A stretch of 64,000 nucleotides of DNA from a virus, in IMG/VR virus record IMGVR_UViG_3300046167_000744, positions 10,373 through 74,372 of that record; one strand, written 5' to 3'. The position numbers and the translations under genes were made by a program. This document shows, piece after piece, positions 108 through 56,350 of this stretch. The notes beneath the pieces are model-generated. The model was given only the letters and a program-made list of their open reading frames with translations, did not search any database and was not told where the DNA came from. Positions within the stretch are counted from its first letter, which is position 1, and each line of letters opens with the position of its first letter.

Positions 108-510
108 TGCCAAAGTTAGGTCAAAACACTGACCGCTCTCCAACATATATAGTTTATCTAGGTGTCTTAGGTAAAGGTATATTACAACTATATATACTCT
201 CTAGCAAGTTTCATTTTTTAGTAAGTTTGGCATTTAGGTCTTTTTGTGTAGTTAGATCAAGGACTTAGAGTCTGCCACTAGGCTGCCACCTGCCAAGAAG
301 ATTCGTGGTTAGAACACTAGTGGATAGCTCACTAGCTCCACTAGCATAGGTTAGAACACTAGTGGATAGCTCACTAGTGGCTCTAGGTTAGTGACACTAG
401 TGGATAGTCCAGTAGCTCACTAGCAAGGTTAGTGACACTAGTGGATAGCCCACTAGCTCCACTAGCTTTAAGTTAGAACACTAGTGGATAGTCCAGTAGC
501 TCCACTAGTC
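108..510. repeat. Symmetric ori-like element, copy 1 (core, right arm and five 37-44 bp CTAG repeat units)
   Basis: TGCCAAAGTT at 108-117 and AAGTTTGGCA at 223-232 flank a TATATA core; TGCCA at 273/284/291; units (G/A)GTTAG(AA/TGA)CACTAGTGGATAG... start at 307, 349, 386, 427, 471. Confidence 0.9.
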
Positions 511-549
511 TATCACCAGGTATATAGACTTGAAGAGCCTCGGTAGATA

Positions 550-570
550 TGATAAGATACAAGTATCTTA
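550..570 (+). promoter_or_regulatory. Extended -10 promoter candidate overlapped by a perfect palindrome (possible operator)
   Basis: TGATAAGAT at 550-558; TAAGATAC-AA-GTATCTTA at 553-570, upstream of ORF 596. Confidence 0.45.
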
Positions 571-595
571 AACCCATTAACGAAAGAAAAGCAAA

Positions 596-832
596 ATGAC
601 AGATGTTCAAATACATTCACTCGTTCTATCGCTAGAGATAATCAAGGTCCTTATGGCTGACACTCCAGGGATCTACGCTGATATGGAACACGCCGCACTC
701 ACTCATGTATTCAGAGCAGGTGAGCAACGTCAACTATCCATGTCTGAACTCACTAACTTGCTAAGATGCACAGCTCAAGAGACAGCTGATAAAATGGCAG
801 CAGTTAGAGTTAGGCTGAATCATGAGAGCTAA
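596..832 (+). CDS. Hypothetical protein
   Basis: 78-aa ORF overlapping the start of the next gene. Confidence 0.6.
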   Translation: MTDVQIHSLVLSLEIIKVLMADTPGIYADMEHAALTHVFRAGEQRQLSMSELTNLLRCTAQETADKMAAVRVRLNHES

Positions 833-1961
833 ACCAGCTAAACTTAAACACGTCTCAGCATCCTCCATCGGCCTGTTCGATAGATGCCAGACCCGATGGT
901 ATTACACCTATCTATTAGGCATGCGTGGCAAGACTACAGATGCGATGACTAGAGGTAGCCGTGTGCATGAGCAACTTGAGAAGTATCTTAAGGATGGGAC
1001 CAAGCCTGAAGTGAAGACCACCTCTGGACTTATAGCGGCTCAAGGATTGGAGCATATACCTAGCCCGAAGAAGTTTACGAAGAAGGAAAATAAGGTAGAG
1101 GCCAGCCTGGCTGAATACCCCGTGCCTAACCTACCGATTCCGTTCAAAGGCTTTATCGACTACCTAGTAGTTGACACTGACGACGGTATCATCGAAGTAG
1201 GGGATCATAAGACAACCTCTGGCTGGAAGTGGATCAAGACTGAAGAGGAGTTACGAGAGAATACTCAGCTCGTGATCTACGCTCGCCACGTCTTAGAACA
1301 CTATCCTGATGCAACTGATATCAGACTGACACATGTATACTATCTAACTAGACCGCCTCATAGCTCACGCAAGGTCACGGTAGTTGTGAGTAGACAGCAT
1401 GTATACGATGAGTTTGATAAGGTTCTAGCCGCTGCCCATAAGATGATCGAGGCAGCATCCAATACACTTGACCACGCCGACAAAAATAAAGCAGACTGTT
1501 TCGCCTACGGCAAACGCTGCACCCAGTATGATGAGTGCTGGCACACCATTAACCATACGGAGAAACTACCTATGAGCAATAAGCAAGAAGATATCCTGGC
1601 CTTCCTTAGAGGCGAATCGGTCCCACCTGCACCTGTAGCAGCGGAGCCTGAACCTGTTGTTTCTGAGACTGAGGTTATCAATGAGGCTGTTACTGTATAT
1701 ATAGGGTGTAAACCGCTCTATGGTGAGTGCAAGTCTCTGATTGATGCGCTCGCACCTCTTATGGCAGAGGTCTGCAGTGATAAGAACGTGAGCCACATCG
1801 GGTTCGTTCCATACGCTCAAGGTTGGGATATGTTAGCTGCGAAGCTAAGCGCTCAGGGACTTCCCAACGGGGCCTACTATGTGCCTTCGTTCAGTAATGT
1901 AGCTCAGCGACTGAGCGACACTCTAGTTACAGTAGCTAACCAGGTGGTGATTGCAGGTTAA
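822..1961 (+). CDS. PD-(D/E)XK RecB/Cas4-like exonuclease with probable Fe-S cluster
   Basis: SASSI..FDRC, RGSRVHEQLE, FKGFIDYL, VGDHKT, QLVIYA and Cys cluster DCFAYGKRCTQYDEC. Confidence 0.85.
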   Translation: MRAKPAKLKHVSASSIGLFDRCQTRWYYTYLLGMRGKTTDAMTRGSRVHEQLEKYLKDGTKPEVKTTSGLIAAQGLEHIPSPKKFTKKENKVEASLAEYPVPNLPIPFKGFIDYLVVDTDDGIIEVGDHKTTSGWKWIKTEEELRENTQLVIYARHVLEHYPDATDIRLTHVYYLTRPPHSSRKVTVVVSRQHVYDEFDKVLAAAHKMIEAASNTLDHADKNKADCFAYGKRCTQYDECWHTINHTEKLPMSNKQEDILAFLRGESVPPAPVAAEPEPVVSETEVINEAVTVYIGCKPLYGECKSLIDALAPLMAEVCSDKNVSHIGFVPYAQGWDMLAAKLSAQGLPNGAYYVPSFSNVAQRLSDTLVTVANQVVIAG

Positions 1962-1970
1962 GACCTACTA

Positions 1971-1979
1971 TGTTATACT
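1971..1979 (+). promoter_or_regulatory. Extended -10 promoter motif TGTTATACT
   Basis: TGnTAnnnT in a short intergenic gap; the motif recurs before many operon starts. Confidence 0.5.
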
Positions 1980-2014
1980 GTGCTTATACTTATAGACTAA
2001 GGAAAGCACGGTAA

Positions 2015-6451: not shown

Positions 6452-9400
6452 ATGGCTATTTTATCAGGTGATGACGCAACCACCAAGGAGCCAGGACTCG
6501 TCAGACTTGCTAGGGTCGATGAGACTTTAGCAGGTGTAAGTGAGTCCATTGCTACCACGCCTCTAGGTGTGGCTTCCTATGTTGCCCAACTTATAGGAGC
6601 GGCCCCTGCTGCCCTTAACACTTTACAAGAGCTAGCTGAAGCTATCCAGGGTGACGACGACTTCTACGTCCGTGTCCAAACCCTAGAGGCTACAGCTACA
6701 TCACACGGCACACGCCTCACCTCTGCTGAAGGTGATATCGCAGTATTGCAAGCGGATCTCAATACCGCCGAGTCTAGCATCTCGACTTTACAGTCGGGCG
6801 TTAGCGGTAACGATACTGATATCGCTGGCATCCTAACCAGGTTGACCGCAGCCGAAGGTGATATTGACGACCTGGAAGCACATACCCATATTGATGGTGG
6901 GGGATCTAGCACAGCGCTCCAAGATGAGGTCGATGATATAGAGGCTGGTGTAGGGCTTGCAACTGACGGATCATACGCTTCACGCAGCGGCTCTAACTAT
7001 ATCGACTCAGCCTCATCTATCGCAGGTGAGATCGGTCTACTCGATACGCAGGTTAAGAGTAACGCAGATGCTATCTCTTCACTTCAATCAGGTGGCTCAG
7101 GTAGCTCCGCTAACCAAGACGAAGTTGATGATATTGAATCATCAGTCGGGTTAGATGCTGACGGTAACTATGTATCCAGGTCTGGAACTAACTACCTCGA
7201 TAGCGCCTCATCCATTGTAGGTGAGATCGGACTACTCGACGCTCAAGCTAAGATTAGCGCTGACGCTATAGCGAGTAACGATAGTGATATCGCATCTATA
7301 CAGAGCGACGTGAGCGCAGCTCAATCAGATATCTCAACGAACGCATCAGGTATAAGCAGTAATAGCTCTGCTATTTCTACACTTAACTCACTAGCTGATT
7401 CTCATGAGGCATCTATCGGACTCAGTTCTGCAGGGGCCTACGTCACGAGATCAGGTAGTAACTACCTCGACAGTGCATCTAGTATTGTAGGTGAGATCAG
7501 CGCTCTCGATACGCAGGTTAAGGCCAATGCGGATTCAGCAGCAGCTAACTCTAGCGCAATCTCTTCTAACGATAGCGATATCGCTGGCATCCTAACCAGG
7601 CTGACAACAGCCGAAGGTGAGATTGACGCTCTAGAGATTGAAGCTCATGATGATACCCAAGTAGAACTCGACGCTACTCAAGCTGGAGCTGGACTCGATG
7701 CTGATGGAGGCTATACCGCCGATGCAACTAGTAACTACTTAACCTCTGCCTCTTCACTGAAGGACGCAGACGATAAGCTAGATGCTCAGATCAAGAGTAA
7801 TGCGGATAGTATCACTAGCCTTCAAAGCTCGGTATCATCTACTCAAAGCGATTTGGATACAGCTGAAAGTGCGATCACTAGTTTACAAAGCGATGTAGCT
7901 GGTAACGATAGCGATATCAGTGGCTTAGCGGCACGTATGTCAACGGCTGAAGGTGATATCACCCAGCTTGAGACTGACGTTGCAGGTAACGATAGTGATA
8001 TAGCGACCAACTTGGCAGCTATACAGAGTAACGATAGTGATATCACGGCGTTGCAGGGGCGCATGTCAACAGCTGAGTCTGATATAGACACAGTAGAGTT
8101 GAGCGTTGCAGGTAAAGCTGATGGTAGCCTGGTGGATACCATTGAGGCATCTATCGGTATTAGTGCGGATGGGACCTTCTCAGCTAACTCCAGCTCTAAC
8201 TACTTAGGATCTGCATCTAGTGTCCGTGGTGAGATCAACGCACTCGACACTCAAGCGAAGGCTAATGCTGACTCTATTGATGCAAACGATACGGATATCC
8301 TCGCCATACTGACCACGGTCTCAGGGCATTCTACTTCAATCGCAGCTAACAGTAGTGCGATCAGCTCTAACGATTCAGATATCGCTACCAACGTAGCTTC
8401 CATCTCGACTCTACAGAGTGAAGTAGATGCAGCTCAAGTCGGTGCTGGATTAGATTCTGATGGAGGCTATACAGCTGACTCATCTAGCAACTACCTCACG
8501 GCAGCCTCTTCACTGAAGGATGCTGACGATAAGCTAGACGCTCAGATCAAGAGCCTATCTGATGATATAGACGCTATCACTTCAGGCACTAGCGGATCAG
8601 CTTCACTAGCTACCATCCAGGCCGAGGTCAATGCGACTCAGGCAGGTGCAGGTCTTGATCCCGACGGCGACTATACAGCTGACTCATCTAGTAACTACTT
8701 AGCATCAGCTACCTCCTTGCTCGATGCAGACGATAAGCTAGACGCTCAGATCAAGGTCAACGCAGACGCAATCGCTTCTAACGACTCAGATATCTCAGCT
8801 CTTCAAAGCTCTGTATCAGGTAATGATAGTGATATCAGTAGTTTACAAAGTTCTGTAGCGAGTAACTCTAGTGCGGTCTCCTCTAACGATAGTGATATCG
8901 CTAACCTCCAGGCGCTCGCCAATACGCACGAAGCCTCTATAGGTCTAGAGGCTGACGGTTCCTTAGCTGCGTTTACGAACAAGCCTATCATCGCATCTGA
9001 TACATCTATCAGAGCAGCGGTCGAAGGCATTGTAGATTATGTAGGTGAAGCATCTATTTCAGGGACGCTATCGGCCAACCTGGTAACTGCTCAAGCAAGC
9101 ATCAGCACTAACGCAACTAACATCAGTGGTAACGACTCAGATATCTCAGCGCTCCAAGCGTCAATGTCTGCAGCCGAGTCTGATATTGATGATCTTGAGA
9201 CCTTAACAGTCTCTCACACATCAAGCATCGCATCGAATGCGGCTAACATCGCATCAAACGATACTGATATAGCGGCTAACCTAGCGTCAATACAGAGTAA
9301 CGACACTGATATAGCTTCTAACCTAGCGGCGATCCAGGGTAACGATAGCGATATTGCTGGACTATTGACCCGTATGAATACTGCAGAGTCAAACATAGGC

Positions 9401-10450
9401 TCTAATGATACGGATATATCTAACATCAATACCAGCGTAGCTACTGCTGAGTCGGATATAGATGATCTTGAGACGCTGACAGCCTCTCATACATCTAGCC
9501 TCGCCTCTAACGCTAGTAGCATATCGAGTCTCTCATCTACGCAGAGTAGTCACGCTTCCACGCTCACGAGCTTGCAGAATCAGATCGACGGGAATGATAG
9601 CGATATCAGCACCAACGCAAGTAGCATCTCTTCTAATGCGAGTAACATCAGTTCAAACGATACTGATATAACTAACTTGCAATCAGAGCTAGACGCTACT
9701 CAAAGCGGAGCTGGTCTTTCTGCAGCTGGGGCCTATCAAGCTGATAGCGGAGCTAACTACATCGCTAGTGCGACTAGCCTTGCTGATGCTGATGATAAAC
9801 TCGATGCTGCTATTGCAGCTAGAGCTTCAGCTATCACTGGCTTAGACACTCGACTCTCAGCTGCTGAGTCTACAGTATCAGGTCACACTTCAACCTTATC
9901 GTCTCAAGCCTCTAGTATCAGCACCATTGAGAGTGATCTTAATACAGCTGAGAGCGCTATCGCTACACTAGAGAGCGAAATGGATGCTGTCGAATCTACT
10001 AATGTATCGCAGGCATCTACCCTCACTTCGCATGGCAGCCGTTTAACGTCCTTAGAGTCTAACGACAGCACTCAAGACAGCAGCATTACTAGCCTTGGAT
10101 CTCGTGTAACCACACTTGAAAACACCACTGGTAGTAATACAGCGATCACAGCACTTCAAGGTAGAATGACTACCGCCGAAGGTGATATAGATGATCTTGA
10201 GACTCTAACCGCCTCTCACACTACCGATATAGCTATTGCTAATGCACGGCAAGGTGGTATTTGGCATCAGGACACTAATACGGTAGTATACAAATCCAGT
10301 GGCTTCACCGTCCGACAATCTTATGGTGCCTGGGGGTATGAACCGTCTACGAATGATTTCGTATTCATCGCACCCGAAGGCGGCCCTGGTGATCGTCACT
10401 GGAATTACGAAGGATCAACTGGTTCAATCATTTTCACAGGAGTATCATAA
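6452..10450 (+). CDS. Giant coiled-coil fibre protein (1332 aa)
   Basis: N-terminal fibre motifs TTKEPGLVRLA and GAAPAALNTLQELAEAI; heptad (N)DSDI repeats interrupted by about 7 GL..DG.Y...S.SNY...A.S modules. Confidence 0.8.
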   Translation: MAILSGDDATTKEPGLVRLARVDETLAGVSESIATTPLGVASYVAQLIGAAPAALNTLQELAEAIQGDDDFYVRVQTLEATATSHGTRLTSAEGDIAVLQADLNTAESSISTLQSGVSGNDTDIAGILTRLTAAEGDIDDLEAHTHIDGGGSSTALQDEVDDIEAGVGLATDGSYASRSGSNYIDSASSIAGEIGLLDTQVKSNADAISSLQSGGSGSSANQDEVDDIESSVGLDADGNYVSRSGTNYLDSASSIVGEIGLLDAQAKISADAIASNDSDIASIQSDVSAAQSDISTNASGISSNSSAISTLNSLADSHEASIGLSSAGAYVTRSGSNYLDSASSIVGEISALDTQVKANADSAAANSSAISSNDSDIAGILTRLTTAEGEIDALEIEAHDDTQVELDATQAGAGLDADGGYTADATSNYLTSASSLKDADDKLDAQIKSNADSITSLQSSVSSTQSDLDTAESAITSLQSDVAGNDSDISGLAARMSTAEGDITQLETDVAGNDSDIATNLAAIQSNDSDITALQGRMSTAESDIDTVELSVAGKADGSLVDTIEASIGISADGTFSANSSSNYLGSASSVRGEINALDTQAKANADSIDANDTDILAILTTVSGHSTSIAANSSAISSNDSDIATNVASISTLQSEVDAAQVGAGLDSDGGYTADSSSNYLTAASSLKDADDKLDAQIKSLSDDIDAITSGTSGSASLATIQAEVNATQAGAGLDPDGDYTADSSSNYLASATSLLDADDKLDAQIKVNADAIASNDSDISALQSSVSGNDSDISSLQSSVASNSSAVSSNDSDIANLQALANTHEASIGLEADGSLAAFTNKPIIASDTSIRAAVEGIVDYVGEASISGTLSANLVTAQASISTNATNISGNDSDISALQASMSAAESDIDDLETLTVSHTSSIASNAANIASNDTDIAANLASIQSNDTDIASNLAAIQGNDSDIAGLLTRMNTAESNIGSNDTDISNINTSVATAESDIDDLETLTASHTSSLASNASSISSLSSTQSSHASTLTSLQNQIDGNDSDISTNASSISSNASNISSNDTDITNLQSELDATQSGAGLSAAGAYQADSGANYIASATSLADADDKLDAAIAARASAITGLDTRLSAAESTVSGHTSTLSSQASSISTIESDLNTAESAIATLESEMDAVESTNVSQASTLTSHGSRLTSLESNDSTQDSSITSLGSRVTTLENTTGSNTAITALQGRMTTAEGDIDDLETLTASHTTDIAIANARQGGIWHQDTNTVVYKSSGFTVRQSYGAWGYEPSTNDFVFIAPEGGPGDRHWNYEGSTGSIIFTGVS

Positions 10451-13400
10451 TGGCTTCAGTCAGACCCGAATCCAATAACACCCACACTCTAGGAACGTCT
10501 ACTTATAAGTGGGCCACCCTACATAGTGTGGATGTTCAGGCCGCTACCATCACAACATCAGGCGATGTTGAAATCGGTGGCAATCTTACCGTCAGCGGAA
10601 CTCAAACCGTTCTTGACGTAACCACCGTAAGTGTTGAAGATCCATTGCTTCAGCTCGCTAAATCCAACTCAGCTGACAGCGTTGATATCGGCTTCTATGG
10701 TCAAATCGTTGACGGGTCTACTACTGAGTATGTTGGACTCTACCGAGATGCTAGTGATGGTAAGTTTAAGTTATTTGAGAGCGCTTCAGCAGCACCTACC
10801 TCTACCGTAAGCGGTGGATCTACCGCCACTCTCGTGGCTAACGTAGAAGGTGCCGTCACTGGTAACGCCGACACTGCAACCTCTGCAGCAGCTCTTACAA
10901 CTGCACGAACTCTCAGCATCAGCGGCGACGCATCAGGCTCTGTATCCTTCGATGGATCAGCTGATGCAGATATCGCTATCACTGTAGGTTCTGGAGCTAT
11001 TGAAAACTCAATGCTCGACAATAGCTCAATCACCTTTACCGACGGATCTAACTCAGAGGCTCTTGCACTCGGTGCGACTCTTGAGATCGGCGGAACCTCT
11101 GGTGAAGTTGAAGTAGCCTACTCATCGGCAGCTAATAAGTTTACCGTAGGGCTTCCTGACGATGTTAATATCGCAGGCGACCTCGTAGTATCTGGTATTA
11201 TCTCAGGAACCGTTCAAGCTAACTCAAGCACAGCTACTAAGTTAGCTACTGCCCGTAACATCGCACTTGGTGGTGATCTTGCAGGCTCTGCTAGTTTTGA
11301 TGGGTCTGCTGACGTGAGCATCACGGCTACCATCCAGGCAGGTAGTGTCGATAACGCTATGCTCGCTAACGATGGAATTAGCCTCAAGCTAGCTGGTGTT
11401 GCTCAAGAAGATATTAACCTCGGTGATGATCTTAACTTCGCAGGGCACTAGCAACGAAGTAGAGATCGCCTATGATGCATCTACTAACTCACTTACTTTC
11501 GGACTACCTAGTAGCATTACTGCTGCGCTCGTAGGGAATGCTTCAACAGCATCCGCTTGGGCTAACGCTAGAACAATCTCACTTGGTGGGGATCTTGGCG
11601 GATCAGTAAGCATTGACGGATCAGCAGATGCGACTCTCACTGCGACTATCCAAGCTGGCTCTGTAGAAAACTCAATGCTGGACAACAGCAGCCTCACTGT
11701 TAGCGATGGATCTAATACATCAGCGGTCGCTCTTGGTGGCACGTTAACTATCGCTGGAACTGCAAATGAGGTTGCGGTAGCTCACTCTTCAGGCGTGACT
11801 ACCATCGGCCTTCCAAGTAGCATCAGTGGTCTTACTGCTGTATCTGCTGACGATTTTGTAGGCGACCTCACGGGTAAGGCTGATACAGCTGACGCTCTTG
11901 CGACTGCACGGACCCTAAGTATCTCTGGTGATGCTACAGGATCTGCTAGCTTCGATGGATCTGCAAACGCAGCTATCGCCCTAACCATTGCGGCTGGAGC
12001 GGTAGATAACGCTATGCTCGCAAATGATGGGATCGGCCTTAAGCTCGCAGGCGTAGCTCAAGAAGACATCAATCTTGGTGATGATCTTAACTTCGCTGGA
12101 ACAGCTAGTGAAGTCGATATCGCATACGCATCAGGTAGTAACACGCTTACATTCAGCCTCCCTTCAACTATCAACGCAGCGACTACCGCAAACGCAGCTA
12201 CATCATCAGCATGGGCCAGCGCTCGCACCGTATCTCTCGGTGGTGACCTCGGTGGATCAGTAAGTATTGATGGATCAGCGGATGCGACTCTCAACGCTAC
12301 TATTCAAAGCAGCTCTGTAGAAAACAGTATGCTCGCTAACTCAGGGATCACCATCCAGGACGACAACGCTCAAGCAGCCTCAGTCGCTCTCGGTGGATCT
12401 CTTCGATTCAGTGAGGTAGCTAACGAGACTACAGTCAACTTCGATTCGTCTGCTGGCTCTATCACTATCGGACTTCCTGATAACATTACAGCTGACGTAA
12501 CAGGTAATGCTGACTCTGCATCGGCTCTTGAGACTGCACGAACCATCGCACTTAGCGGTGACGTAACAGGCACAGGCTCTTTCGATGGATCAGCTAACCT
12601 CACAATAGCAACTACTTTAGCAGGTGGCACGGCGCTCACCTTCGCTGACGGTGACTCAAACTCTGAAGCTCTAGCTTTGGGATCGACTATCACCTTTGAA
12701 GGCACTAGTAATGAAGTTGATGTTGCGTATGGAGCAGGCTCCAATACATTCACTATTGGACTACCTGATACTATCGCTGCGGAACTCACAGGTAATGCAT
12801 CTACTGCAACTGCCCTGGCTACAGCTCGCACCATTGCTCTTAGTGGCGATGTTACAGGTTCGGGTTCGTTTGATGGTAGTGGCAACCTCACCATCGCTTC
12901 TACTTTGGCTGGTGGCACTGCTCTTACCTTTACTGATGGATCTAACTCAGAGGCTCTGGCTCTCGGTTCGACTCTTGAAGTCGGAGGCACCGCTAACGAG
13001 GTAGAGGTCGCATACAGCACAGCGGCTAATAAGTTTACAGTTGGTCTTCCTGATGATGTAAACATCGCAGGTGATCTCGTAGTCTCTGGAACTATTTCAG
13101 GAACCGTAGCGGCTAACTCAAGCACTGCTACTAAACTAGCTACAGCTCGCACCATCTCACTCGCTGGTGACCTTGGAGGCTCAGTGAGCTTCGATGGATC
13201 AGCTGATGTTAGCCTCACTAGCACGATCCAGGCAGGTAGCGTTGATAACTCAATGCTAGCTAATGATCATATCGGCCTTAAGCTCGGTGGTGTAGCTCAA
13301 GAGGATATCGCACTCGGTGATGATCTCGACTTTGTTGCAGGTCAGGACCTAGACGTAGCTTATAACGCTAGCACTAACGCTCTTACATTCAGCCTTGAGT

Positions 13401-15145
13401 CTGAGATTGATAGTGATACTACTGGTAACGCAGCAACCGCTTCCGCACTTGAGACCGCACGAACTCTCAGCATCACTGGTGACGCTACAGGTTCAGCTAG
13501 TTTCGATGGGTCAGCTAATGCGGCTATCGCATTGACCATCGCTGCAGGTGCTGTAGACAACGCCATGTTAGCTAATGATGGAATCAGCTTGAAGCTCGGC
13601 GGTGTTGCTCAAGAAGATATCAACCTCGGTGATGATCTTAACTTTGCAGGGACCGCTAGTGAAGTGGAGATCGCTTATGCTTCTGGAAGTAACACTCTTA
13701 CTTTCGGACTCCCTGATACTATCGCTGCAGAGCTTACAGGTAACTCAAGCACTGCTACTAAACTAGCTACAGCTAGAGCTATCTCAGTGAGTGGAGACGC
13801 TTCAGGAACCGTTAACTTCGATGGGTCAGCTGACGCAGATATCGCATTGACTATCGCTTCGGGCGCTGTCGATAACGCTATGCTTGCTAACGATGGATTT
13901 AGCCTTCTCGTGGATAGCGTGAGCCAAGAGGATATCAACCTCGGTGACTCACTCAACTTCATCAGTGGTCAAGATATTGATATCGCTTACAACACTACAT
14001 CTAACCAACTCAGTATTGCTCTTGAAGGCACTATTGATAGCGATACTACTGGTAACGCAGCGACTGCTTCAGCATGGGCAAACTCACGCACAATCAGTCT
14101 AGGCGGTGACCTTGGAGGCTCAGTTGCTCTTAACGGATCTGCTGATGCAACTCTCACGGCTACTATCCAGTCTAACTCAGTAGAAAACAGCATGCTGGCT
14201 AACAGTGGCGTAACACTAGCAGCTGACTCAGGTTCAAACGATCCTATAGCTCTTGGTGAGACACTCACTATCTCAGGAACCTCTAACGAGATCGAGACTG
14301 CTGCCGCTGGTAGTAATCAGATCACTATCGGACTTCCTAATAACGTCACTATCGGTAATAACCTCACCGTAACCAACGACTTAGCGGTATCTTCAGGTGA
14401 TCTTGAGATTACTGACGGGACACTCTCTATCCTCGGTGGTGGAGCTACTATCAACGGAACCGTAGCGATCAACGGAACGCATACCATCAACGGTAGCCTT
14501 ATCGCTAACTCTGCAACTATGAAGTTTGAAGACAGCCTCCTTGAGCTAGGTTACACTAACTCAAGCGTTGTCGATCACGGTTTCTTCAGCAAGCATAGCG
14601 ACGGCGATTACGTCGGTGTAGCTTATGATCAGTCAGCTGCTGAGTTTGCGATGTTCAAGACAGGCACCAAGCCTGGAGCGACAGTAGACACTGGTGCTGG
14701 TGATTATGAGCTTGCTGATATGCGAGCGAAGAACATTGCTGCTAACGGTAGCTTGCTCGTGAGCGGTTCCGTTATCAACAACTCTTCAAAGGGTATGTTC
14801 GAGAAGCTCAGCTTCGCCTCTGTTACTGGAGCTAACACCACTCTATCAGGCTCTCAGATGGTCGGTGGTGTGATTCTTCGTGATGCGAGCAACGATGAGA
14901 CTGATGCAACCGCTACAGCGGCTCAGATCGTAGCTGCGATGCCTAGCTCTGCTAGACTTGCAGATATGACTTTCGTGATGCGCTTCATCGTCTCAGGAAC
15001 TAGCGCTGGATATAGCTTCACAGCTGGATCTGGTGTGACTATTGTTGGAGGGTCTTCTTACATGACAGACAAGACTCACTCGTATCTCGTGCGTGTTACT
15101 AACGCTACGGGATCTAGTGAAGCGGTCACCATGTATAAGCTCTAA
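10450..15145 (+). CDS. Giant repetitive fibre protein (about 1560 aa), split by one extra base near 11443
   Basis: About 11 repeats of ATARTIxLxGDxxGSxSFDGSAD; ORFs 10450-11451 and 11396-15145 join at NFAG/TSNEV, which matches intact repeats near 12090 and 13640. Confidence 0.8.
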
Positions 15146-19042: not shown

Positions 19043-20499
19043 ATGCCTAATCAATCAAAGACATTTAATGTGCCACAGGCTGTCCGTGATGCTGCCGAGC
19101 GTGGCTTAGAACTGCGTCGTAAACACGGTCGAGGCTGGTCTTGATGCTAAGCAAGCTAAGAAAGAAGGAGTAGGCTCTGGTGTTCCAGCGAGCCTCTAAT
19201 CTTATGCAAGGCACCGTCTCTTACAAAACTGTTAAGCGTATGTTAGCCTTCTTCAATAGACATAAGGCGTTTAAAGAGCATCATAGCGATAAGACGAGTG
19301 CTGCTTGGATCTCACATATGCTATGGGGCGGCAATCCAGGTTATGCGTGGGCTAAACGCATTGTGAAGCAGGAGGAGAAAGTCGAGAAGGGTAGCTTCCT
19401 AGCTGCTCACTACTTCGGTGACGACTTCCCTGATGAGGAGCTTGAGGAGGAGGCTCAGCCTATCGGTGGTTTTGCGGAGTTACTTAAAGCCGCTCGCAGA
19501 CCTAAAGACTTTATGGATATCGAGGGCAGGAAACGTATTAAAGCTAAAGCTGGTGACGAGACTGATGTTGTCGCTAGTGATGTAAAGCCTGTCGATGCTC
19601 CTAAAGACGCTATACCTGCTGAAGACGAGCCGCCTAGTAGTAAAGAACTCGATGAGGCCCTTAAGGAGTTCGGTGAGGAATCTGACGACGAGGTAGAGAA
19701 GGGTGTAGTGGTTATAGATCTAGTCGGTGACGACGATGAGCTACCTGATACAGAGCCAGCGGCCCCTGTGCCTCCACCTCAAGTTCCTATGCCTATACCT
19801 CCTGAGCCGATGCTCCAAGAGATAGACTTCGTGCCTGACGTGATCGTGACTCCCTATGATCAAGTTAAGATGAAGAAGATAGCTAAGAAAGGCCGAGCTA
19901 TCTATGGCGTTGACAGGGTAGCTAAGAAGCAGGGACTCTATATATGTAGAGGTCAGTGGGACAATGTTGACCTAGATCTAGTTCAGGGCTATCTATCATT
20001 TATAGATGAGCCTGGTATGAAGAAGAATGCGCTCGCTGTAGGTGGCGAAGCCATGCTCGCTGTGATTGAAAAGGCTGAGCCTAAAGTCCCTGCTAAATAT
20101 TTAGAGGGATTGACAGGGCAGGAGCGTCAGAAGCGTAAGCGTGAGATACAGCGTCGGATGAAGGATAAGCAGAGCTATAAAGAGCTGCCAGGTGATAAGG
20201 ACGCTAAAACTAAACCTAGTAAGTATACCCGTAGTAGCTTCGCAGCTAAGGTTCGTGAAGAGATTAAGAAGCCTGGTAAAGATGAGTTCTTACGGGCGGC
20301 AGCTAAAGTGAGTGGTATAAGCAAGACGATACTAGAGGAGTGTTATGATCGTGGCTTGAAGGCTTGGTCGTCAGGAGGTCACCGACCAGGGGCCTCACCT
20401 GCTGCGTGGGCTAGAGCTAGAGTCTACTCCCTGGCTACAGGAGGCAAGACACGAAGCACCGCTGATAAAGACTTATGGGAGAGACATAAGAGAGGCTAG
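19043..20499 (+). CDS. Multi-domain head-associated protein with C-terminal DUF5824-like domain (two apparent extra bases near 19136 and 19185)
   Basis: VPQAVRDAAERGL...VKRMLAFFNRH...LWGG.PGYAWA domain, acidic/Pro linker, then YDRGLKAW.SGGHRPGASPAAWARARVYS. Confidence 0.65.
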
Positions 20500-20952
20500 T
20501 GCGACTAGTGAGCTATCCACTAGTGTTCTAACTTAAAGCTAGTGGAGCTAGTGGGCTATCCACTAGTGTTCTAACCTAAAGTTAGTGGAGCTACTGGACT
20601 ATCCACTAGTGTTCTAACATGGGAATTGCTAGTGGAGCTACTGGACTATCCACTAGTGTCACTAGTAACTTTGGCATTCTAGTGGCAGGGTCTAACCTTA
20701 TGATATAGTTAGCCTATTCGGGCAGAATGCCAAAGTTACCCGAAAACTAAGGATGCCCTGGAGTATATATATATTCTACCCTATTTATATTTATACATAC
20801 TTATATATATATGTTTCTCTGGAACTCTTTAAAAATAGGTAACTTTGGCATTTTGGTCTTTTTCCGTATACATATCACAGGCTTAAGCCCTGCCACCTGT
20901 CTGCCACTTGCCAAGAAGATTCGTGGTTAGAACACATTTGTTGCTCACTAGC
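20496..20952. repeat. Symmetric ori-like element, copy 2 (four repeat units, both arms, AT core)
   Basis: CTATCCACTAGTGT units end at 20532, 20575, 20618, 20665; boxes at 20728-20737 and 20841-20850; TGGCA at 20672/20683; TGCCA at 20891/20902/20909. Confidence 0.92.
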
Positions 20953-21032: not shown

Positions 21033-21782
21033 ATGAAGAAGTTCCTGACGCTTCCTTTTATTAACATCACTACGAGCAGCAAGGCTTGGATCACGTTAGC
21101 CGACCTAGCTACATATCTAGAAATAGGTGAGCAGTCACTGAGGCGCAGGATACTATATTCAGACTCGGCCCCGTTCAGAACTATACGCCCTAAAACCAAT
21201 GAGCTTATAAAAGCTGCCAGGCGCAGTTCCTTTACGGGCAGACCTAACCGACAATACTTTGATTTAGATTTTGCTCTGGCGGCCTGTTTCAGTATGAGTC
21301 ACGAACCAGCTCGCAAGATGCGTGATCAAGTCGTGTATATAATGAACAACCTGTTTTACGACGGGTTCGTCTCTACTAAGAACTACCATTTAAGTATTGA
21401 GGTGCGTAGAGCTATAACAGCCTACGTCTGCGGTGTGGATCATTATTATAAGATCATTGAGGCTCGATGGGACCCGACAGACCAGTGCCACGGCACGACG
21501 CTAGCCCCTCTTGAAGTATCCGTTGAGAAGCTCGTTATCCCAGACTATTACCTGGAACGTGCCGAGATAAGTAAGGTTAAGGCTATAGATTTAGCGATCC
21601 ACTTGATATTAACGCATTGTTATGTAGAAGATAAAGGTTCGGCTTTAGTAGACTTACTTGGTATAATAGGTATCACTGTAGACGCTGGTGTCTGCGGAGC
21701 TGAACAAACCTCTAACATAACGGAATGGGTTAAGGAGCGTTACAACGCTTCCTCCTCTACGATTGGAGATTTAAATGTCTAA
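21033..21782 (+). CDS. RhuM-like DNA-binding protein
   Basis: WITLADLATYL...QYFDLDFALAACFSMSHEPARKMR...DGFV parallels the RhuM pattern WLTQ..MAELF...YYNLD.IIAVGYRV.S..A..FR...KGF; own promoter TGGTATACT at 20961 and AGGAGG RBS. Confidence 0.6.
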   Translation: MKKFLTLPFINITTSSKAWITLADLATYLEIGEQSLRRRILYSDSAPFRTIRPKTNELIKAARRSSFTGRPNRQYFDLDFALAACFSMSHEPARKMRDQVVYIMNNLFYDGFVSTKNYHLSIEVRRAITAYVCGVDHYYKIIEARWDPTDQCHGTTLAPLEVSVEKLVIPDYYLERAEISKVKAIDLAIHLILTHCYVEDKGSALVDLLGIIGITVDAGVCGAEQTSNITEWVKERYNASSSTIGDLNV

Positions 21783-45779: not shown

Positions 45780-46205
45780 ATGACAGATAAATATGAGAAG
45801 GTGAATGAGCCTCAACACTATCAGGGCAAGGACGGTATGACCGTTATGCAGATCATCCAGGCTTACGAGTGCAACTTCGCAGTCGGTAACGTGATTAAAT
45901 ACATGCTTAGAGCTGGCAAGAAGCCTGCCGAGGATGCCCTGGTCGATTTGAATAAGGCCCTTAAATACCTTGAGTTTGAGATTACTGAAAGAACACCTAT
46001 CGAGAAGCGTGTTATCGGAGCTAACCTACGCAGCACTCCTGAGAGCCTAAAGGGTTATGAGGAGATGGGTAGATATCACGCTGCGAGCTATACACCTGCC
46101 GAGGCTGATCCCTCGTTCGGTAATCCGCATCTAGTCTTCAGAGATGAGTCGGAGCCTGTGCGTTCAATCATCGATTTGAGCGAGTTAGTAGACCATGAAG
46201 ACTAG
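45780..46205 (+). CDS. DUF3310 / T7 gp1.7-like nucleotide kinase domain protein
   Basis: VNEPQHY...FAVGNVIKY.LRAGKK...DL.KA..YL. Confidence 0.8.
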   Translation: MTDKYEKVNEPQHYQGKDGMTVMQIIQAYECNFAVGNVIKYMLRAGKKPAEDALVDLNKALKYLEFEITERTPIEKRVIGANLRSTPESLKGYEEMGRYHAASYTPAEADPSFGNPHLVFRDESEPVRSIIDLSELVDHED

Positions 46206-46566
46206 AGCCACTACTGGACTATCCACTAGTGTTCTAACTTATGCTAGTGGAGCTAGTGGGCTATCCACTAGTGTTCTAACGGCAAATCTTTCTGGCAGGT
46301 GGCAGCCTGCTGGCAGGCCCTTTTCCTCAACAAGATCAAGAGCTTAGCCTACCAAATGCCAAAGTTACCTATTTTAAAAGAGTCTGGATCAACATATATA
46401 TCTATAAGTATACTATATACAGATACACCTATAATATATATGTATCGGCGTAGACTCTCGAAAAACACAAGTTTGGCAGAATCTTCAAAAACTGCTATGT
46501 TATCAACACTTTACACCATGCCACTTAGTTAGATGAGCTACTGGACTATCCACTAGCGTCACTAGC
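46202..46566. repeat. Symmetric ori-like element, copy 3
   Basis: Units end at 46238 and 46280, plus one at 46535-46566; TGGCA at 46293/46300/46311; boxes at 46357-46366 and 46469-46478; TGCCA at 46519. Confidence 0.9.
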
Positions 46567-49825: not shown

Positions 49826-50704
49826 ATGTTCGATATACAACATATTGAGGTGCCAGGTAAGCTGATTGACGAGCTACACCGAGAAGGCACAATCAACAGA
49901 GAGGCCACTATTGATCCTACAGCGGATGATGGTGGCTTTTATCTTTTAACGGCTGGTAAGAAGTCAGCACTAGGTGTGGCTATAGGAGACAGTATACAGC
50001 GTGTGGTGGAGAAGGGCATGGATTGGCAAGGTATTAAGCCTAGAGATAAGGCTCAGCTCTGCATGTTCCACTCTCTATCCAACTTCGATCTCACGGTAGT
50101 GCTAGGCGCTGCAGGGACAGGGAAGACCACTGTAGCTACAGCCTATGCACTGCATCAGTTCTTTAGGCATGAGAAGAAGATCGTGCTTAGTAAGCCGTCT
50201 TGCTTTGTAGGTGGTCGATCCAACGCTATCGCAGCGGTCCCTGGTGATGCACGAGAGAAGATAGCTCCATACGTAGAGTCTTTTATGGGTGCGTTGCGCT
50301 CCATATTAGGGGATCATGCGGAGCATCACCTCTATGAGATGGAGGAGAAAGGCAACTTGATGTTCCAGCCTCTGGAGCTTATCCGAGGTCTGAACTTCGA
50401 TAACCATATCGTTATCATTGATGAGGCTCAGAATACCACCGCTCATGAGCTGCTATCGCTTATTAGTAGAGTTGGGCAGCATAGCCAGTGTATAGTGATG
50501 GGCGATCCATCTCAGATAGATATGGATATCACCTGGCAGGAATCAGGACTGCGTAAGCTATTACAGAGTGACTCGTTCTACGACGACCCTATATGCCAGG
50601 CTATCAAACTTAAAGCTCAATACCGTGGGCCACTCGCTGAGCTGGCTCAGGATGTATTGGACGAGTTACTAGGAGACGAAGATGATATCAATCATTATAA
50701 GTAG
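49826..50704 (+). CDS. phoH: PhoH-family ATPase
   Basis: GAAGTGKT, PGDAREK..PY, IRGLNF...IDEAQN, GDPSQID. Confidence 0.93.
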   Translation: MFDIQHIEVPGKLIDELHREGTINREATIDPTADDGGFYLLTAGKKSALGVAIGDSIQRVVEKGMDWQGIKPRDKAQLCMFHSLSNFDLTVVLGAAGTGKTTVATAYALHQFFRHEKKIVLSKPSCFVGGRSNAIAAVPGDAREKIAPYVESFMGALRSILGDHAEHHLYEMEEKGNLMFQPLELIRGLNFDNHIVIIDEAQNTTAHELLSLISRVGQHSQCIVMGDPSQIDMDITWQESGLRKLLQSDSFYDDPICQAIKLKAQYRGPLAELAQDVLDELLGDEDDINHYK

Positions 50705-52536: not shown

Positions 52537-53121
52537 TTAGGCCTCCTCGTGTTTGATCTTCCCATCCTCATCAGGTTGGGCGCTGTAGTCACGCTCGTGA
52601 AGAAGCCTTAACTTCTCAGCGAGGCACTGTGCAGGATCGAGGTTGAGTAAAGCAGAGAGGTGAAAGGCTAGCACGAATATGTCAGCGAGTTCGTTACCCA
52701 CGTCCATACGAGTTTTAATCGTATCATTCTCTGAGTAAGCGGTAGCAGCCTCAGTGAGTTCCTGGACCTCTTCTTTTAAGTGGTTCAGGACCCCGTTGAC
52801 GGTAGCTCGATCATCGAGTTGCTGCTGCCAGTGCCAGATAGCGAGCGCAGCGTCGTCGAGTGGGAGCGCAGCAGGTGTGATAAAGGCAACCTCATCGCAC
52901 TTCTCTTGGATATCTTCGCTTAGGCCCATCTGAGAGAGTATGGTTGAGGAGTAGGCAGCGTGAATCTTGCTACCAACACGGACGATACCTTGCAGGGCTA
53001 TATCAGCGGCCTCTGTAGCTAGTAGCTTACCTTCGTTATTCTTCTCAGAGAGAATCATTTTAGATACGGATGAGCGAGCTTCAAGGCGAGCTTTGAGGTA
53101 TTCTTCGACAGTAGAGATCAT
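52537..53121 (-). CDS. MazG-like all-alpha NTP pyrophosphohydrolase
   Basis: HLKEEVQEL...NELADIFVL...AEKL...ERDY. Confidence 0.75.
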   Translation of the reverse strand: MISTVEEYLKARLEARSSVSKMILSEKNNEGKLLATEAADIALQGIVRVGSKIHAAYSSTILSQMGLSEDIQEKCDEVAFITPAALPLDDAALAIWHWQQQLDDRATVNGVLNHLKEEVQELTEAATAYSENDTIKTRMDVGNELADIFVLAFHLSALLNLDPAQCLAEKLRLLHERDYSAQPDEDGKIKHEEA

Positions 53122-53161: not shown

Positions 53162-53398
53162 CTAACTATAGTCTACCGCCCTCTTATTTGCAAGCCTTTT
53201 GATAGATCGCAGCTCTTCATCAGATAAATCTTGCTCCATGTCCATACCGAAGTCGGATATGCAGGCTATGATGGACCCGTCAGCGTCTAGCGTTATCGCT
53301 AACTCCTCGCCTGAGTGTCTTCGTAAGATTAAGAACAGATGAACTAGCTCGACTACATAAGTATCTCCAAAGCTAACATCAATAGATGGGTGTGACAT
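53162..53398 (-). CDS. Hypothetical protein
   Basis: AGGAG RBS and TGCTACTAT promoter at 53426-53434. Confidence 0.6.
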   Translation of the reverse strand: MSHPSIDVSFGDTYVVELVHLFLILRRHSGEELAITLDADGSIIACISDFGMDMEQDLSDEELRSIKRLANKRAVDYS

Positions 53399-53438
53399 AA
53401 TAAGCTCCTATTGTCTATTTCCTAGATAGTAGCATATA

Positions 53439-55445
53439 TCATTTCATATCGTAGCTAAGATCGCACTGACCTCCAGGGCAAGCTACCTCCGCCATAGCCT
53501 CTGTATTGTCTTCAGCCTCATGAACACCATCTAATTTGATGTTAGGTAGCTCTGATAGGGCGTAGTATAGATCCCTAGTTTCAATCTTAGCTTCGTAGTG
53601 AGGGTCCGACGGATCAGGATTGTCGTAAACCTCTGCATATGGAGGCTGCTGATAGTCGTAATCACCCGAAGTAGATAGTAGCGAGATGCCCGTAAAGTAA
53701 TCTCGATTGGTCCAGATGTATTCTCTGACGGAGTTCCATTCGTCTGGAGCTACCGATACCGTTATCGACACGTTATGCTGCAGATCGAGGCACCTGTTTA
53801 GATCCGTAGAGTCGTTGACCCATGATTTATTGACGGTCTTAGCTAGTTCGAGGTGCTGCAATGCGTGGATATCACTCTTAACTAGAGCAGTTGGAGGTGC
53901 TTCGCAAGGGAAGGCTATCACTCGTTGCGTGTCTGCGCCCCATACTGAGTTGGAGCAGGCTTGAGGGTGTGTGCGTTCTACTTCCTGGTATAGAGGCTCA
54001 AGCATATCAGCCTGGACCCTGCGGATATACTTCTTTGCGTGATATGGGTGTATGCCTGCTGACGTGCCTAATACTATAGAAGCCGTGCCTTCAGGTTTGA
54101 CACAGGTGATACGAGAGGCTTGAGGAATACCGATAGCCTCACTTATCTCTTTATTAGTTAGCGCTGCGAGGTTCTTAGCCTTTTGTAGTGTAGAGGCGGT
54201 GTAGAACATAGGATCTGAGAGTATGCCTGTCATCGACACACCTAGTAGGGACTCACGACGGATGATAGCCTCGCTGACGGAACCGAGATACGGGAAATCA
54301 GTGTAAGAGGCTTGGACCGTGCCTAGCGTGGTAGCTAGCTGCACCGCTGATAGGAACTCAGCTTCAGATGTAATGGAGGAGCAGTTTATCGTAGTGAGGT
54401 TACACGCCTGCCAACCTGACTGGAATGTATAGCCTAGTGACTCCCATCGAGAGCGCCGAGTATGATCCAGTAGTTCAGGTGTGTATAGCTCTACCGTTTT
54501 ACCGTTCTGCTGGACTAGGACGGGGGCCATTCCTATCTCGACGCAGGGATTGTATAAGTATTCCGCAGACTTAGAGAAGATAAAGCCAGGCTCACCAAAC
54601 TCCTTTGTAGACTGGAAGAGGTTATCGTATACCTCTTTATCCGTGTCGGGTAGTAGCATCGCACTGATGTTGGCCCTACCTCGCTGTGGATTGTCGATGA
54701 ACCAGTTACCTGTCTTGCTCTTATACATCTCGGAATCATCAGGTGAGAATACTGCGATAGTTGCAGATCTGCGGATTCCACCTGATATCACCGCATCCGC
54801 TAGGTGCATAGTTATATCGAAGGCTTCAATAGGTCTGAGTTGGCGACCTATCGCTGAATGTAAGATGTTACGTGCGTGGATAAGCGCCTTTTGGAGAGGT
54901 GCAGGGCCAGGAGCGAGGCCACCGTGACGTAGCGGAGCGCCTTTAGGACGAACCTGCGAGAAGTCGAAGAGTGGAAAGGCTGATCCCGTGAAGTATGCGT
55001 CGGTGAGACGATGCACTGCGTCTGCCCAGCCTTCAATAGAGTCTTCAACGGTGAAGGAGATGGACCCTTGAGGCTCAAGTAGTGGAGGTAGGCTCTGTAT
55101 ATGGTGCTTCTGAACGCTGAAGCCAGCTCCACAACCGCAGAGGAGGAGCCAGAAACACTCACCGAAGAATGATGGACGGTCACAATAAGATACGACACAG
55201 TTATAGATGCGAGCGTTCTTCTCTTCTATAGCTTCGCCGCCGAACTGTAGACCACGTTGGCTACCTGCGATGATCTTAGATTTATAAGCCTCTCTCGTTT
55301 GGACTAGATTTAGACCAGGGAAGCGTGATTGGTGCATATCCATCACTCGGTTTACAGACTCAATAAAAGACTCTCTTCGTTGCTGGTCTGCTAGGTATTT
55401 AGGGTATTTAGATGCGAAAACGTAGTTAGATAGCGACTGCTTCAT
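53439..55445 (-). CDS. nrdJ: Class II (AdoCbl-dependent) ribonucleotide reductase
   Basis: RIYNC, LLCGCGAGFS, SGGIRRSA, NPCVEI, ACNLT, TCVKPEGT, C-terminal ACPGGQC; no small subunit nearby. Confidence 0.92.
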   Translation of the reverse strand: MKQSLSNYVFASKYPKYLADQQRRESFIESVNRVMDMHQSRFPGLNLVQTREAYKSKIIAGSQRGLQFGGEAIEEKNARIYNCVVSYCDRPSFFGECFWLLLCGCGAGFSVQKHHIQSLPPLLEPQGSISFTVEDSIEGWADAVHRLTDAYFTGSAFPLFDFSQVRPKGAPLRHGGLAPGPAPLQKALIHARNILHSAIGRQLRPIEAFDITMHLADAVISGGIRRSATIAVFSPDDSEMYKSKTGNWFIDNPQRGRANISAMLLPDTDKEVYDNLFQSTKEFGEPGFIFSKSAEYLYNPCVEIGMAPVLVQQNGKTVELYTPELLDHTRRSRWESLGYTFQSGWQACNLTTINCSSITSEAEFLSAVQLATTLGTVQASYTDFPYLGSVSEAIIRRESLLGVSMTGILSDPMFYTASTLQKAKNLAALTNKEISEAIGIPQASRITCVKPEGTASIVLGTSAGIHPYHAKKYIRRVQADMLEPLYQEVERTHPQACSNSVWGADTQRVIAFPCEAPPTALVKSDIHALQHLELAKTVNKSWVNDSTDLNRCLDLQHNVSITVSVAPDEWNSVREYIWTNRDYFTGISLLSTSGDYDYQQPPYAEVYDNPDPSDPHYEAKIETRDLYYALSELPNIKLDGVHEAEDNTEAMAEVACPGGQCDLSYDMK

Positions 55446-55678
55446 AGCCTGTTCCTGTCCGATTAATAGGTAAGTAAAGACCTGGTGTAGCTGCAACCTA
55501 CTCGTAAAGAAGCGTAGGGAGCTTACCGAAAGATCAATAGGGTTAAGTAGTATATAAGAGAGAGATGCATCTGTAAAGTAGGTGTTGAAAGCTAGGTGCC
55601 TGACCTGTGCTGATCAGGCAGATATAGATGTCGCCCTATATATAGAGTCAAGATTCTAGTGGTGAGATTCATCGAATC

Positions 55679-55832
55679 GGTATTGAGTTAGTCGTCTGTA
55701 GCTTAAATCTAGAGGCATGGATCACTGATATTGGTATTCAGTTAGTCGGCCTGTAGCTAGTTTTAAGAAGCCTGGATCACTGATATTGGTATTGAGTTAG
55801 TGGCTCGTTACTAGTTTTAAGAAGCCTGGATA
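55679..55832. repeat. Three imperfect tandem units of about 54-55 bp (third truncated)
   Basis: GGTATT(G/C)AGTTAGT...TGGAT units start at 55679, 55733, 55788. Confidence 0.85.
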
Positions 55833-55935
55833 TATGCCGTGCGGCAGATTTATCGAGGTGAAAACCAGGGTGGTATTATGTCTATCCCGAAAAAGTGACA
55901 ATTTTTGTCACAGGGTTAGTGAGCATCAAAATTGC

Positions 55936-56350
55936 CCACTAGCACCTAGTGGATAGCAAAATGCGCTCTAGGCTAGAGCCACTAGTGGGCTATCCACTAG
56001 CTCACTAACAATGCTAGTGACACTAGTGGGCTATCCACTGGTGTTCTAACACGAAATCTTTCTGGCAGGTGGCAGACAGGTGGCAGGGTCTAACTATATG
56101 TTTCCGTTGAGGAAAAACCCCAAAATGCCAAACTTAGTAAAATATAAAAGGTCTAGGGGAGTATATATAGTTTGAGAGTATGGTTTTTTAAAAACACTAT
56201 AAGAATATATATATACTCCAGGGCATCCTTAGTTTTCGGGTAACTTTGGCATTCTGCCCGAATAGGCTAGTTATATTAAGCACTTAAGCCCTGCCACCTC
56301 TCTGCCACTTAGTTAGTGACGCTAGTGGGCTATCCACTAGCTCCACTAGC
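55936..56350. repeat. Symmetric ori-like element, copy 4
   Basis: Degenerate units at 55936-56050 and 56312-56350; TGGCA at 56063/56070/56081; boxes at 56126-56135 and 56242-56251; TGCCA at 56292/56303. Confidence 0.92.

Follow-up and report, generated by a model that had tools for sequence, protein, structure and literature searches.

The DNA examined here, a window of 64,000 nucleotides, corresponds to bases 10373-74372 of the 74,372-base virome contig G000 (IMG/VR record IMGVR_UViG_3300046167_000744) and contains four dispersed copies of a non-coding, bilaterally symmetric element in the genome of a virulent-looking marine myovirus of 73 kb. The elements are genuine and conserved, and selection acts on their geometry. 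We favour, with a probability of roughly 0.55, the reading that they represent four helicase-loading sites of the kind used by the Rep and PriRep proteins of Staphylococcus aureus pathogenicity islands (SaPIs), because they are built like origins and because a PriRep-type enzyme is encoded beside copy 1. A first-pass annotation of the window had described four copies on one blueprint; we find the blueprint at all four places, and the complete genome holds no more. Bases 1-1262 of G000, which lie left of the window, match window positions 62741-64000 (approximately 1260 bases, the right end of the contig) at 98.8% identity. As the contig ends overlap, the genome is complete at approximately 73.1 kb and the four copies are the full set; this closure stands against the source record, which gives the genome as linear and 46% complete. 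The 15 mismatches within the overlap suggest that two population variants were joined in the assembly.

Four symmetric elements with a common geometry

Each element is arranged around an AT core of 105 bp, with a GC content of 0.28-0.32 compared to 0.475 for the genome, which is enclosed by two mutually inverted boxes of the sequence TGCCAAASTT. The box-to-box spans of 125, 123, 122 and 126 bp in copies 1 to 4 reproduce the earlier values exactly. The box sequence occurs nine times in the window, always within the four elements (0.16 occurrences expected from shuffles), and is absent from the remaining 10 kb of the genome. In seven of the eight arms the pentamer contained in the box is opposed to one to three outer pentamers, the first of which lies 45 bp away in six arms and 46 bp away in the left arm of copy 3 (arm 3L), with further pentamers following at +11 and +7 bp; these positions likewise agree with the first pass, and no additional pentamers were seen in the elements. 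The left arm of copy 1 (arm 1L) consists of the box only, since a gene begins there. Every element thus has five to seven TGCCA pentamers flanking its AT core, and 25 of the 119 TGCCA/TGGCA pentamers of the genome fall within the 939 bp of the elements (1.2 expected, P ~3e-24). Beyond the pentamers lie arrays of CCACTAG-rich units of 42-47 bp, reported earlier as repeats of about 42 bp, in mirror orientation on the two sides. The sequence CTATCCACT is carried by 16 units inside the elements, which also hold 33 of the genome's 43 CCACTAG half-sites. The parts of the four copies, including a site resembling the consensus of integration host factor (IHF), are as follows, with no strand assigned to the cores:

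1-96, minus strand: 5' part of a gene of 183 amino acids (P0002), function unassigned, whose ribosome-binding site abuts the left box of copy 1
108-232: core of copy 1, boxes at 108-117 and 223-232, ATATAT at ~144-151 and ~188-196; fourth least stable window of the genome
233-510, plus strand: long arm of copy 1, IHF-like site at 255-267, TGCCA at 273, 284 and 291, five 42-bp CCACTAG units at 307-510
20495-20727, minus strand: long arm of copy 2, four units of 43-47 bp at 20495-20670, pentamers at 20672 (belonging to an extra full box, 20667-20676) and 20683, IHF-like site
20728-20850: core of copy 2, boxes at 20728-20737 and 20841-20850; least stable 100-bp window of the genome
20851-20952, plus strand: short arm of copy 2, IHF-like site, pentamers at 20891, 20902 and 20909, one degenerate unit
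46201-46356, minus strand: long arm of copy 3, two units at 46201-46285, pentamers at 46293, 46300 and 46311
46357-46478: core of copy 3, boxes at 46357-46366 and 46469-46478
46479-46566, plus strand: short arm of copy 3, perfect match to the IHF consensus (TATCAACACTTTA), pentamer at 46519, one unit
55936-56125, minus strand: left arm of copy 4, two to three units at 55936-56055, pentamers at 56063, 56070 and 56081
56126-56251: core of copy 4, boxes at 56126-56135 and 56242-56251
56252-56354, plus strand: right arm of copy 4, pentamers at 56292 and 56303, one unit

The eight half-elements align to a single blueprint which, read outward from the core, consists of ATATAT(A/G)(C/T), approximately 24 nt ending in an A/T tract, the box (T)AASTTTGGCA, approximately 20 nt, an IHF-like ATCAnnnnTTA, three TGCCAC motifs and then the CCACTAG units. 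Since the copies are homologous, statistics of excess over chance are the wrong test, and the informative property is fixed spacing in spite of diverged filler: identity between the arms of this genome is 36-42% in the filler as compared to 94% in the box. By nearest-neighbour energies, no 100-bp windows of the 73.1-kb genome are less stable than the four cores, which take ranks 1 to 4 with ΔG values between -107 and -112 kcal/mol; the mean of the genome is -136.6 kcal/mol (standard deviation 5.9). The IHF-like site has at least eight of nine consensus matches at its fixed position in 7 of 17 arms, compared to 4% of random windows. We treat it as no more than a lead, given that the arms are homologous. 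Positions 56202-56269 of copy 4 are an exact inverted copy of 20710-20777 in copy 2, and this 68-bp identity shows recent exchange between copies; arm sharing between the copies is mosaic, and the number of units varies between arms.

Pattern scans for the boxes recovered eight contigs of relatives that are approximately 70% identical at the DNA level and carry the same boxes, while 14 of 15 virome matches and 6 of 13 metagenome matches were discarded as chance hits or other elements. Two unrelated contigs (L009, 1227-1357, and L052, 528-637) contain a different element, with inverted ends starting with the same word TGCCAAAGTTAAGA(A/C)CCCC and forming long GC-rich hairpins, which probably represents another repeat family. 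Distant relatives were recovered through the protease and, by an alignment-based search, through the primase-helicase; a single-protein locus search with the primase-helicase found no relatives, and blastn of copy 2 against cultured phages gave no match. Site 1 is spanned in contigs L054, L056 and L058, site 2 in L015, L061 and L051, site 3 in L060 and site 4 in L055, each with the same unique flanks. The four copies are therefore not an assembly artefact, as independent metagenome and virome contigs of relatives span all of them. Taking this phage and its close relatives together, every one of the 10 elements has its boxes at a span of 122-126 bp; among the 20 arms, the first outer pentamer lies at 45 bp in 13 and at 46 bp in 4, and ATATAT lies 38 bp from the box pentamer in 18. 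The filler between these motifs contains almost no information across the same 20 arms.

The distant relatives keep elements at sites 1 and 2, written in other words. In G002 the box is GACCATTTGG and the outer motif GACCAC occurs three times at spacings of 45-46, 11 and 8 bp; in G005 and L046 CCACATA underlies boxes and outer repeats alike, with a spacing of 48 bp; in the still more distant L047 and G003 the boxes are inverted as well (GCCAA-type; GGAGGGYAGGGA) and the nearest motifs begin 101-121 bp apart. The same geometry with other pentamers, which the first-pass annotation had proposed looking for, thus exists with GACCA (G002) and CCACA (G005, L046). Box and outer repeat always switch jointly across the relatives, as would be expected if one phage-encoded protein reads both. 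The units track the pentamer, too: those of G002 consist of GACCAC plus TAAG, that is, of an iteron plus TAAG, so that the CCACTAG-type units look like additional iterons.

The primase-helicase and related replication systems

The enzyme that would tie the elements to replication is encoded outside the window, where the first pass had expected a primase-helicase to be found:

6646-9789 of G000 (583-3726 bases left of window base 1), minus strand: primase-helicase of 1047 amino acids, two genes left of copy 1

Copy 1 lies approximately 0.7 kb upstream of the start of this gene, beyond the 183-residue gene, and the other copies are 10-50 kb away. The protein contains a Pfam VapE-like domain (E 5e-30), and its best sequence match in the PDB is 7pds_A, the Rep1 protein of SaPI1 (E 5e-15, phmmer). 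An AlphaFold2 model of residues 520-930, with a predicted local distance difference test score (pLDDT) of 62.6, matches all six chains of 7PDS over approximately 440 columns (Foldseek probability 1.00, E 3.5e-4), and the last 80 residues of the model, which form three to four helices plus a beta hairpin, find DNA-binding winged-helix proteins as their matches in Foldseek. The N-terminal 500 residues (pLDDT 75) contain invariant DxD and GxGxHxH motifs and match primases of the archaeo-eukaryotic primase (AEP) type and PrimPols weakly (E 0.07 and above). According to these structural models of modest confidence the protein is of the PriRep type, with a predicted primase, a superfamily 3 (SF3) helicase and a winged helix. 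No other replicative helicase or initiator was recognized among the approximately 40 open reading frames (ORFs) scanned, about half of the approximately 80 called.

The wing of the winged helix in this protein differs in each box type, with five different wings for five iteron types; the residues concerned fall in a stretch that reads RPGGIRC or RVAGQRL. It is nearly unchanged in P0006, which is tied to the TGCCA-type contig L054 by an exact 21-residue match, and altered at 5 positions in the GACCA-type G002. The sequences are consistent with co-evolution of iteron and wing, although not decisively so, because the primase-helicase as a whole diverges at least as fast as its wing. Two further proteins were considered as box readers, the helix-turn-helix (HTH) protein of 78 amino acids encoded by ORF 596 and the 249-residue product of ORF 21033; both were dropped, being conserved across box types.

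The closest known systems are the origins of SaPIs, among them SaPI1, SaPI5 and SaPIbov1, and related phage-inducible chromosomal islands (PICIs). SaPI Reps are self-loading helicases whose C-terminal winged helix reads penta- or hexanucleotide iterons; their origins contain 6-12 iterons, half on each side of an AT-rich region and at least two per side in opposite directions, and one hexamer is presumed to load per side (PMC9371898). The origin of SaPI5 is approximately 300 bp long with an AT-rich centre of 102 bp, and the structure of PriRep5 bound to it shows four C-terminal domains engaged with a set of three direct iterons and an inverted one (bioRxiv 10.64898/2026.10.17.759575). Both orientations are found on a single side of these origins. 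The phage resembles these systems in its type of protein, a helicase of the SF3/VapE type with a winged helix at its C-terminus (and, in SaPI5, joined to a primase), in the short iterons on both sides of an AT region (approximately 80-100 bp in the islands; here five to seven pentamers and a 105-bp core) and in the opposed iterons, of which the islands have at least two per side and which are found here in the seven arms mentioned above. A complete arm contains exactly three direct pentamers and one inverted pentamer. It differs in that the inverted iteron of SaPI5 is 15-17 bp from the others, whereas here the distance is 40 bp with the IHF-like site in between, in the ATATAT at a fixed distance from the box and the long CCACTAG arrays, in having four copies, none of them 3' of the gene, in place of a single ori immediately 3' of rep, and in being a virulent-looking phage rather than a satellite.

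Other systems share part of this organization. The satellite phage P4 has a primase-helicase that recognizes identical short iterons in two places, ori and crr, both of which are needed in cis; these are unlike loci 4.5 kb apart as opposed to four copies of one symmetric blueprint. The hr regions of baculoviruses and oriS/oriL of herpesviruses are dispersed, near-identical symmetric origins within one genome, and the hr regions are enhancers as well. The likeness to these eukaryotic viruses is one of genome logic only, as their binding proteins are unrelated and their origins are based on palindromes rather than on iterons and an AT core. The first-pass annotation had drawn on P4-type and iteron origins and on the baculovirus hr; the closest model is the SaPI/PICI ori and not the baculovirus hr. 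Bacillus phage SPP1 has two origin copies, oriL and oriR, the second of which, when bound by G38P, has been proposed to stall the fork and lead to recombination-dependent replication (PMC3485210). Its initiator is unrelated (G38P with a DnaB-type helicase and a loader), and the two copies have no bilateral symmetry. In layout, the elements also resemble RR1-RR4 of the Campylobacter group II phages CP21, CP220 and CPt10, four similar bipartite repeat regions between four modules (PMC4546147), with two arms each, variable numbers of units and a module-separating position. In contrast, RR1-RR4 are of kilobase scale, can have genes within them, fall together with inversions of modules and have been given no function, and neither an AT core nor iteron geometry nor a link to an initiator is described for them (PMC4546147).

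On the helicase-loading reading, the winged helix in the C-terminal domain of the 1047-residue protein, at approximately residues 800-900, would read the TGCCA(C) pentamers. A complete arm would present three pentamers in the same orientation together with the box pentamer in opposite orientation, and a bend at the IHF-like site would fold the outer three back toward the box. One hexamer could then assemble per arm, the two facing each other across the 105-bp AT core, which would melt, and the AEP primase domain would prime bidirectional synthesis. The CCACTAG arrays, which share the CCAC core with the pentamers, may serve as extra, weaker sites that raise the local initiator concentration or insulate the core. 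Either all four sites would fire or there would be one main origin, copy 1 by virtue of the adjacent initiator operon or copy 4 with its large repeat zone. In the latter case the others might be auxiliary cis sites comparable to crr of P4 or initiator-bound fork barriers comparable to oriR of SPP1.

A number of observations weigh against this interpretation. The single SaPI ori directly follows rep, whereas copy 1 is located approximately 0.7 kb 5' of the phage gene and three copies are 10-50 kb away. The ATATAT sequence and its exact 38-bp position in 18 of 20 arms are more than an unwinding element needs, and in the inward direction 18 of 20 arms give a sigma-70-like -10 hexamer (TATATT or TATAGT). 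The model of the helicase and winged helix is of modest quality (pLDDT 62.6), the wings of different iteron types differ by no more than the protein diverges overall, and the CCACTAG dyads could belong to a second protein. Within co-directional operons, the setting of sites 2 and 3, one of the forks leaving an origin would run head-on against transcription. GC skew, which was to be compared with the copy positions, is weak and tracks gene orientation, and was dropped as an origin marker. The earlier proposal of dispersed initiator-loading sites has gained in substance through the meltability of the cores, the PriRep neighbour and the conserved geometry, yet it stays an interpretation beside which a promoter or operator role still stands.

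Competing explanations

The strongest rival, which we nevertheless consider unlikely, holds that the elements are transcription control hubs, with two promoters per core and with boxes, outer pentamers and IHF-type bend acting as operator or activating sites of one regulator that times the modules; the CCACTAG arrays would be roadblocks or insulators. The location of the elements is in keeping with such a role. All four are intergenic and at module borders, namely between the primase-helicase and the exonuclease-terminase genes, between portal and protease-capsid, between tail and small genes, and beside the ribonucleotide reductase (RNR) operon. Genes run leftward from copy 1 around to approximately 50.95 kb and rightward from copy 1 to 50.95 kb, so that copy 1 is the sole divergence point, copies 2 and 3 lie within the rightward block and copy 4 lies within the leftward block. 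The inward TATATT/TATAGT hexamers, with A at position 2 and T at position 6, lie 28 bp from the box, which places the box at about -45, the bend at about -70 and the outer sites at about -95 to -115, a classical activator layout. For P0002, the first gene of the leftward block that includes the primase-helicase, no promoter is visible elsewhere, and the ribosome-binding site of this gene adjoins the left box in L054 and L056 as it does here. The core at site 2 of G003 has an extended -10 (TGGTATACT) directed at the capsid operon, and a minus-strand terminator at 55895-55911 suggests leftward transcription out of copy 4.

Other features fit promoters poorly. There is no conserved -35 but an A/T tract of either polarity at that position, the face-to-face inward starts would be merely ~12-25 bp apart, and a scan with consensus promoters gave no excess over shuffles. 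Operons nearby have sigma-70-like promoters of their own, TTGAAG-N17-TAAGAT for ORF 596 and TTTACA-N17-TATACT for RNR. Among candidate regulators none was found to vary with the box, the HTH of ORF 596 and the product of ORF 21033 being conserved across box types. Three of the eight arms would transcribe antisense into the 3' end of a neighbouring gene and yet are equally kept, also in relatives. The halves keep their mutual distance even at sites 2 and 3, where one of them is turned toward the 3' end of a co-directional gene and just the other could serve; this fits a two-sided assembly better than independent promoters. Origin and transcription roles may both hold, as origin-associated transcription is common. 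A more specific combined version, which we regard as possible though doubtful, is that this 73-kb virulent-type phage is run from four interchangeable origins for a self-loading helicase that are also module borders with promoter-like motifs, i.e. dual origin/transcription elements kept uniform by exchange between copies.

Several specific promoter types were considered and rejected. A sigma-54 promoter would account for TGGCA, but the GG-N10-GC spacing is unmet. The Bacteroidetes -7 motif TAnnTTTG fits seven of the eight boxes, but Shine-Dalgarno motifs are present in 51 of the 80 genes, and the promoters of the leftward 'early' genes are of the sigma-70-like form CTTGYAA-N17-TAnnnT. Together with the intrinsic terminators of these genes, the promoters and the Shine-Dalgarno motifs show the host to be a bacterium, and the bacterial promoters and terminators speak against archaeal promoters with a TATA box and B recognition element (BRE). 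TATATAC is not enriched upstream of genes outside the elements, which speaks against a general late promoter.

A role mainly as recombination linkers, at which modules would be exchanged or inverted by crossing over, seems to us improbable. There are four elements for four modules, with bipartite arms of variable unit number, and CP21, CP220 and CPt10 provide a precedent (PMC4546147). The mosaic arm sharing, the perfect 68-bp inverted identity of copies 2 and 4 and the long arm at site 4, which differs between this phage and L055, are in keeping with such a role, but any repeat that is dispersed in a genome can be expected to undergo exchange between its copies. Homology alone would suffice for recombination and leaves the base-exact spacings, the AT core and the opposed motifs unexplained; moreover, the order of genes around all four sites is identical in every relative recovered, with no inversion or module swap seen among them.

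A role as packaging or DNA-handling platforms, whether for recognition by the small terminase subunit TerS (pac- or cos-like), partition, titration or control of ejection, is similarly improbable. Repeated sites with an IHF-like site around a symmetric centre resemble lambda cosB and P1 pac, copy 4 lies within a repeat-dense non-coding zone of 1.45 kb, and a gene of 219 amino acids with unassigned function occupies the usual position of the small terminase gene. Four cos sites, however, would cut the genome into pieces, and we know of no precedent for four pac sites. No ParB-, TerS- or partition-type protein was recognized among the proteins scanned, and this reading would explain neither why the AT cores are the least stable DNA of the genome nor their association with the primase-helicase.

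The remaining candidates can be dismissed briefly. CTATCCACT resembles the DnaA box TTATCCACA, but relatives keep just CCACTA(G/A) and the half-site is CCACTAG. A hairpin role of the units in RNA or DNA conflicts with an uncompensated mismatch in the 7-bp stem of about one third of them. A miniature inverted-repeat transposable element (MITE) or other transposon is contradicted by the homology of the flanks beyond the boxes, and an inverton by the symmetry of the core, as a flip would change nothing.

Genome surroundings and significance

Judged by its gene content (terminase, portal, protease, capsid, sheath, baseplate, RNR and a split PolA), the phage is contractile-tailed. Its major capsid protein is less than 30% identical to that of any cultured phage, the nearest being SPO1-like Bacillus phages, so that its relationship to the SPO1/Twort-like phages, with which the first pass had compared the arrangement, is very distant. 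Seawater origin is indicated by five DNA sequencing runs from four studies, all marine, each containing at least 68% of the sampled words of the phage; no RNA dataset was among the runs listed. The family A DNA polymerase is distributed over three ORFs of 369, 88 and 543 amino acids (window 62349-64000, minus strand; G000 4-270 and 520-1629, minus strand) and may be a split enzyme or one interrupted by an intron or intein. Two huge proteins of 1332 and 1249 amino acids, encoded at window 6452-15145 with many internal repeats of 60-300 nt, are probably tail fibres. Genes for PhoH-like and MazG-like proteins and for ribonucleotide reductase, of a kind that marine phages typically carry as auxiliary genes, are located at window 49826-50704, 52537-53121 and 53439-55496, respectively. 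Rfam gave no matches at gathering thresholds over the whole window.

The non-coding zone around copy 4 (window 55500-56950) may be a control locus or the main origin. It contains further repeats:

~55660-55830: tandem units of 54-55 bp
55895-55911, minus strand: terminator-like palindrome, rated a good terminator
56437-56484: three 16-bp repeats of the type GCATATCCACTTTGGT
56590-56655, plus strand: tandem array with a 7-bp period (CTCGCCA/CTTGCCA), approximately 300 bp right of copy 4

The 7-bp array includes five iteron-like GCCAC cores (56597-56638), all in the same orientation. To the right of this zone, the minus-strand gene at 56945-57709 has a strong promoter, CTTGCAA-N17-TATAGT, in front of it, together with an array of GGGGCGA heptamers (window 57710-58050 and 56912-57803), a unit kept in the relative L055. 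Directly right of copy 2 and ahead of the prohead protease gene, ORF 21033 (window 21033-21782) encodes a protein with an HTH-looking N-terminus and no family match that is kept in all relatives, down to 38% identity. The HTH of ORF 596, right of copy 1, resembles that of sigma region 4, and the promoter of this ORF is accompanied by the dyad TAAGATA-N4-TATCTTA (window 520-600; L034 3790-3865). Dyad and HTH are both conserved in G002, which suggests a small regulator under its own control.

Descriptions of replicons that rely on self-loading SF3 helicases, in phages and satellites alike, give a single origin beside the initiator gene, whereas the elements analysed here come in four conserved copies. 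If they serve as loading sites, they would offer a test case for what several such sites achieve in a small genome, be it faster replication, fork barriers that switch the mode of replication or coupling to transcription. The copies also constitute origin variants in series, which could inform on how two hexamers sit across an AT core, a step left open by the SaPI structural papers. Inverted pentamer boxes approximately 123 bp apart around the least stable DNA of a genome may serve as a signature for origins in uncultured marine phages. If the promoter reading is true, the elements would define how transcription is programmed in a lineage of uncultured phages, and if they are dual origin/transcription elements, they would represent a prokaryotic-virus counterpart of the baculovirus hr regions.

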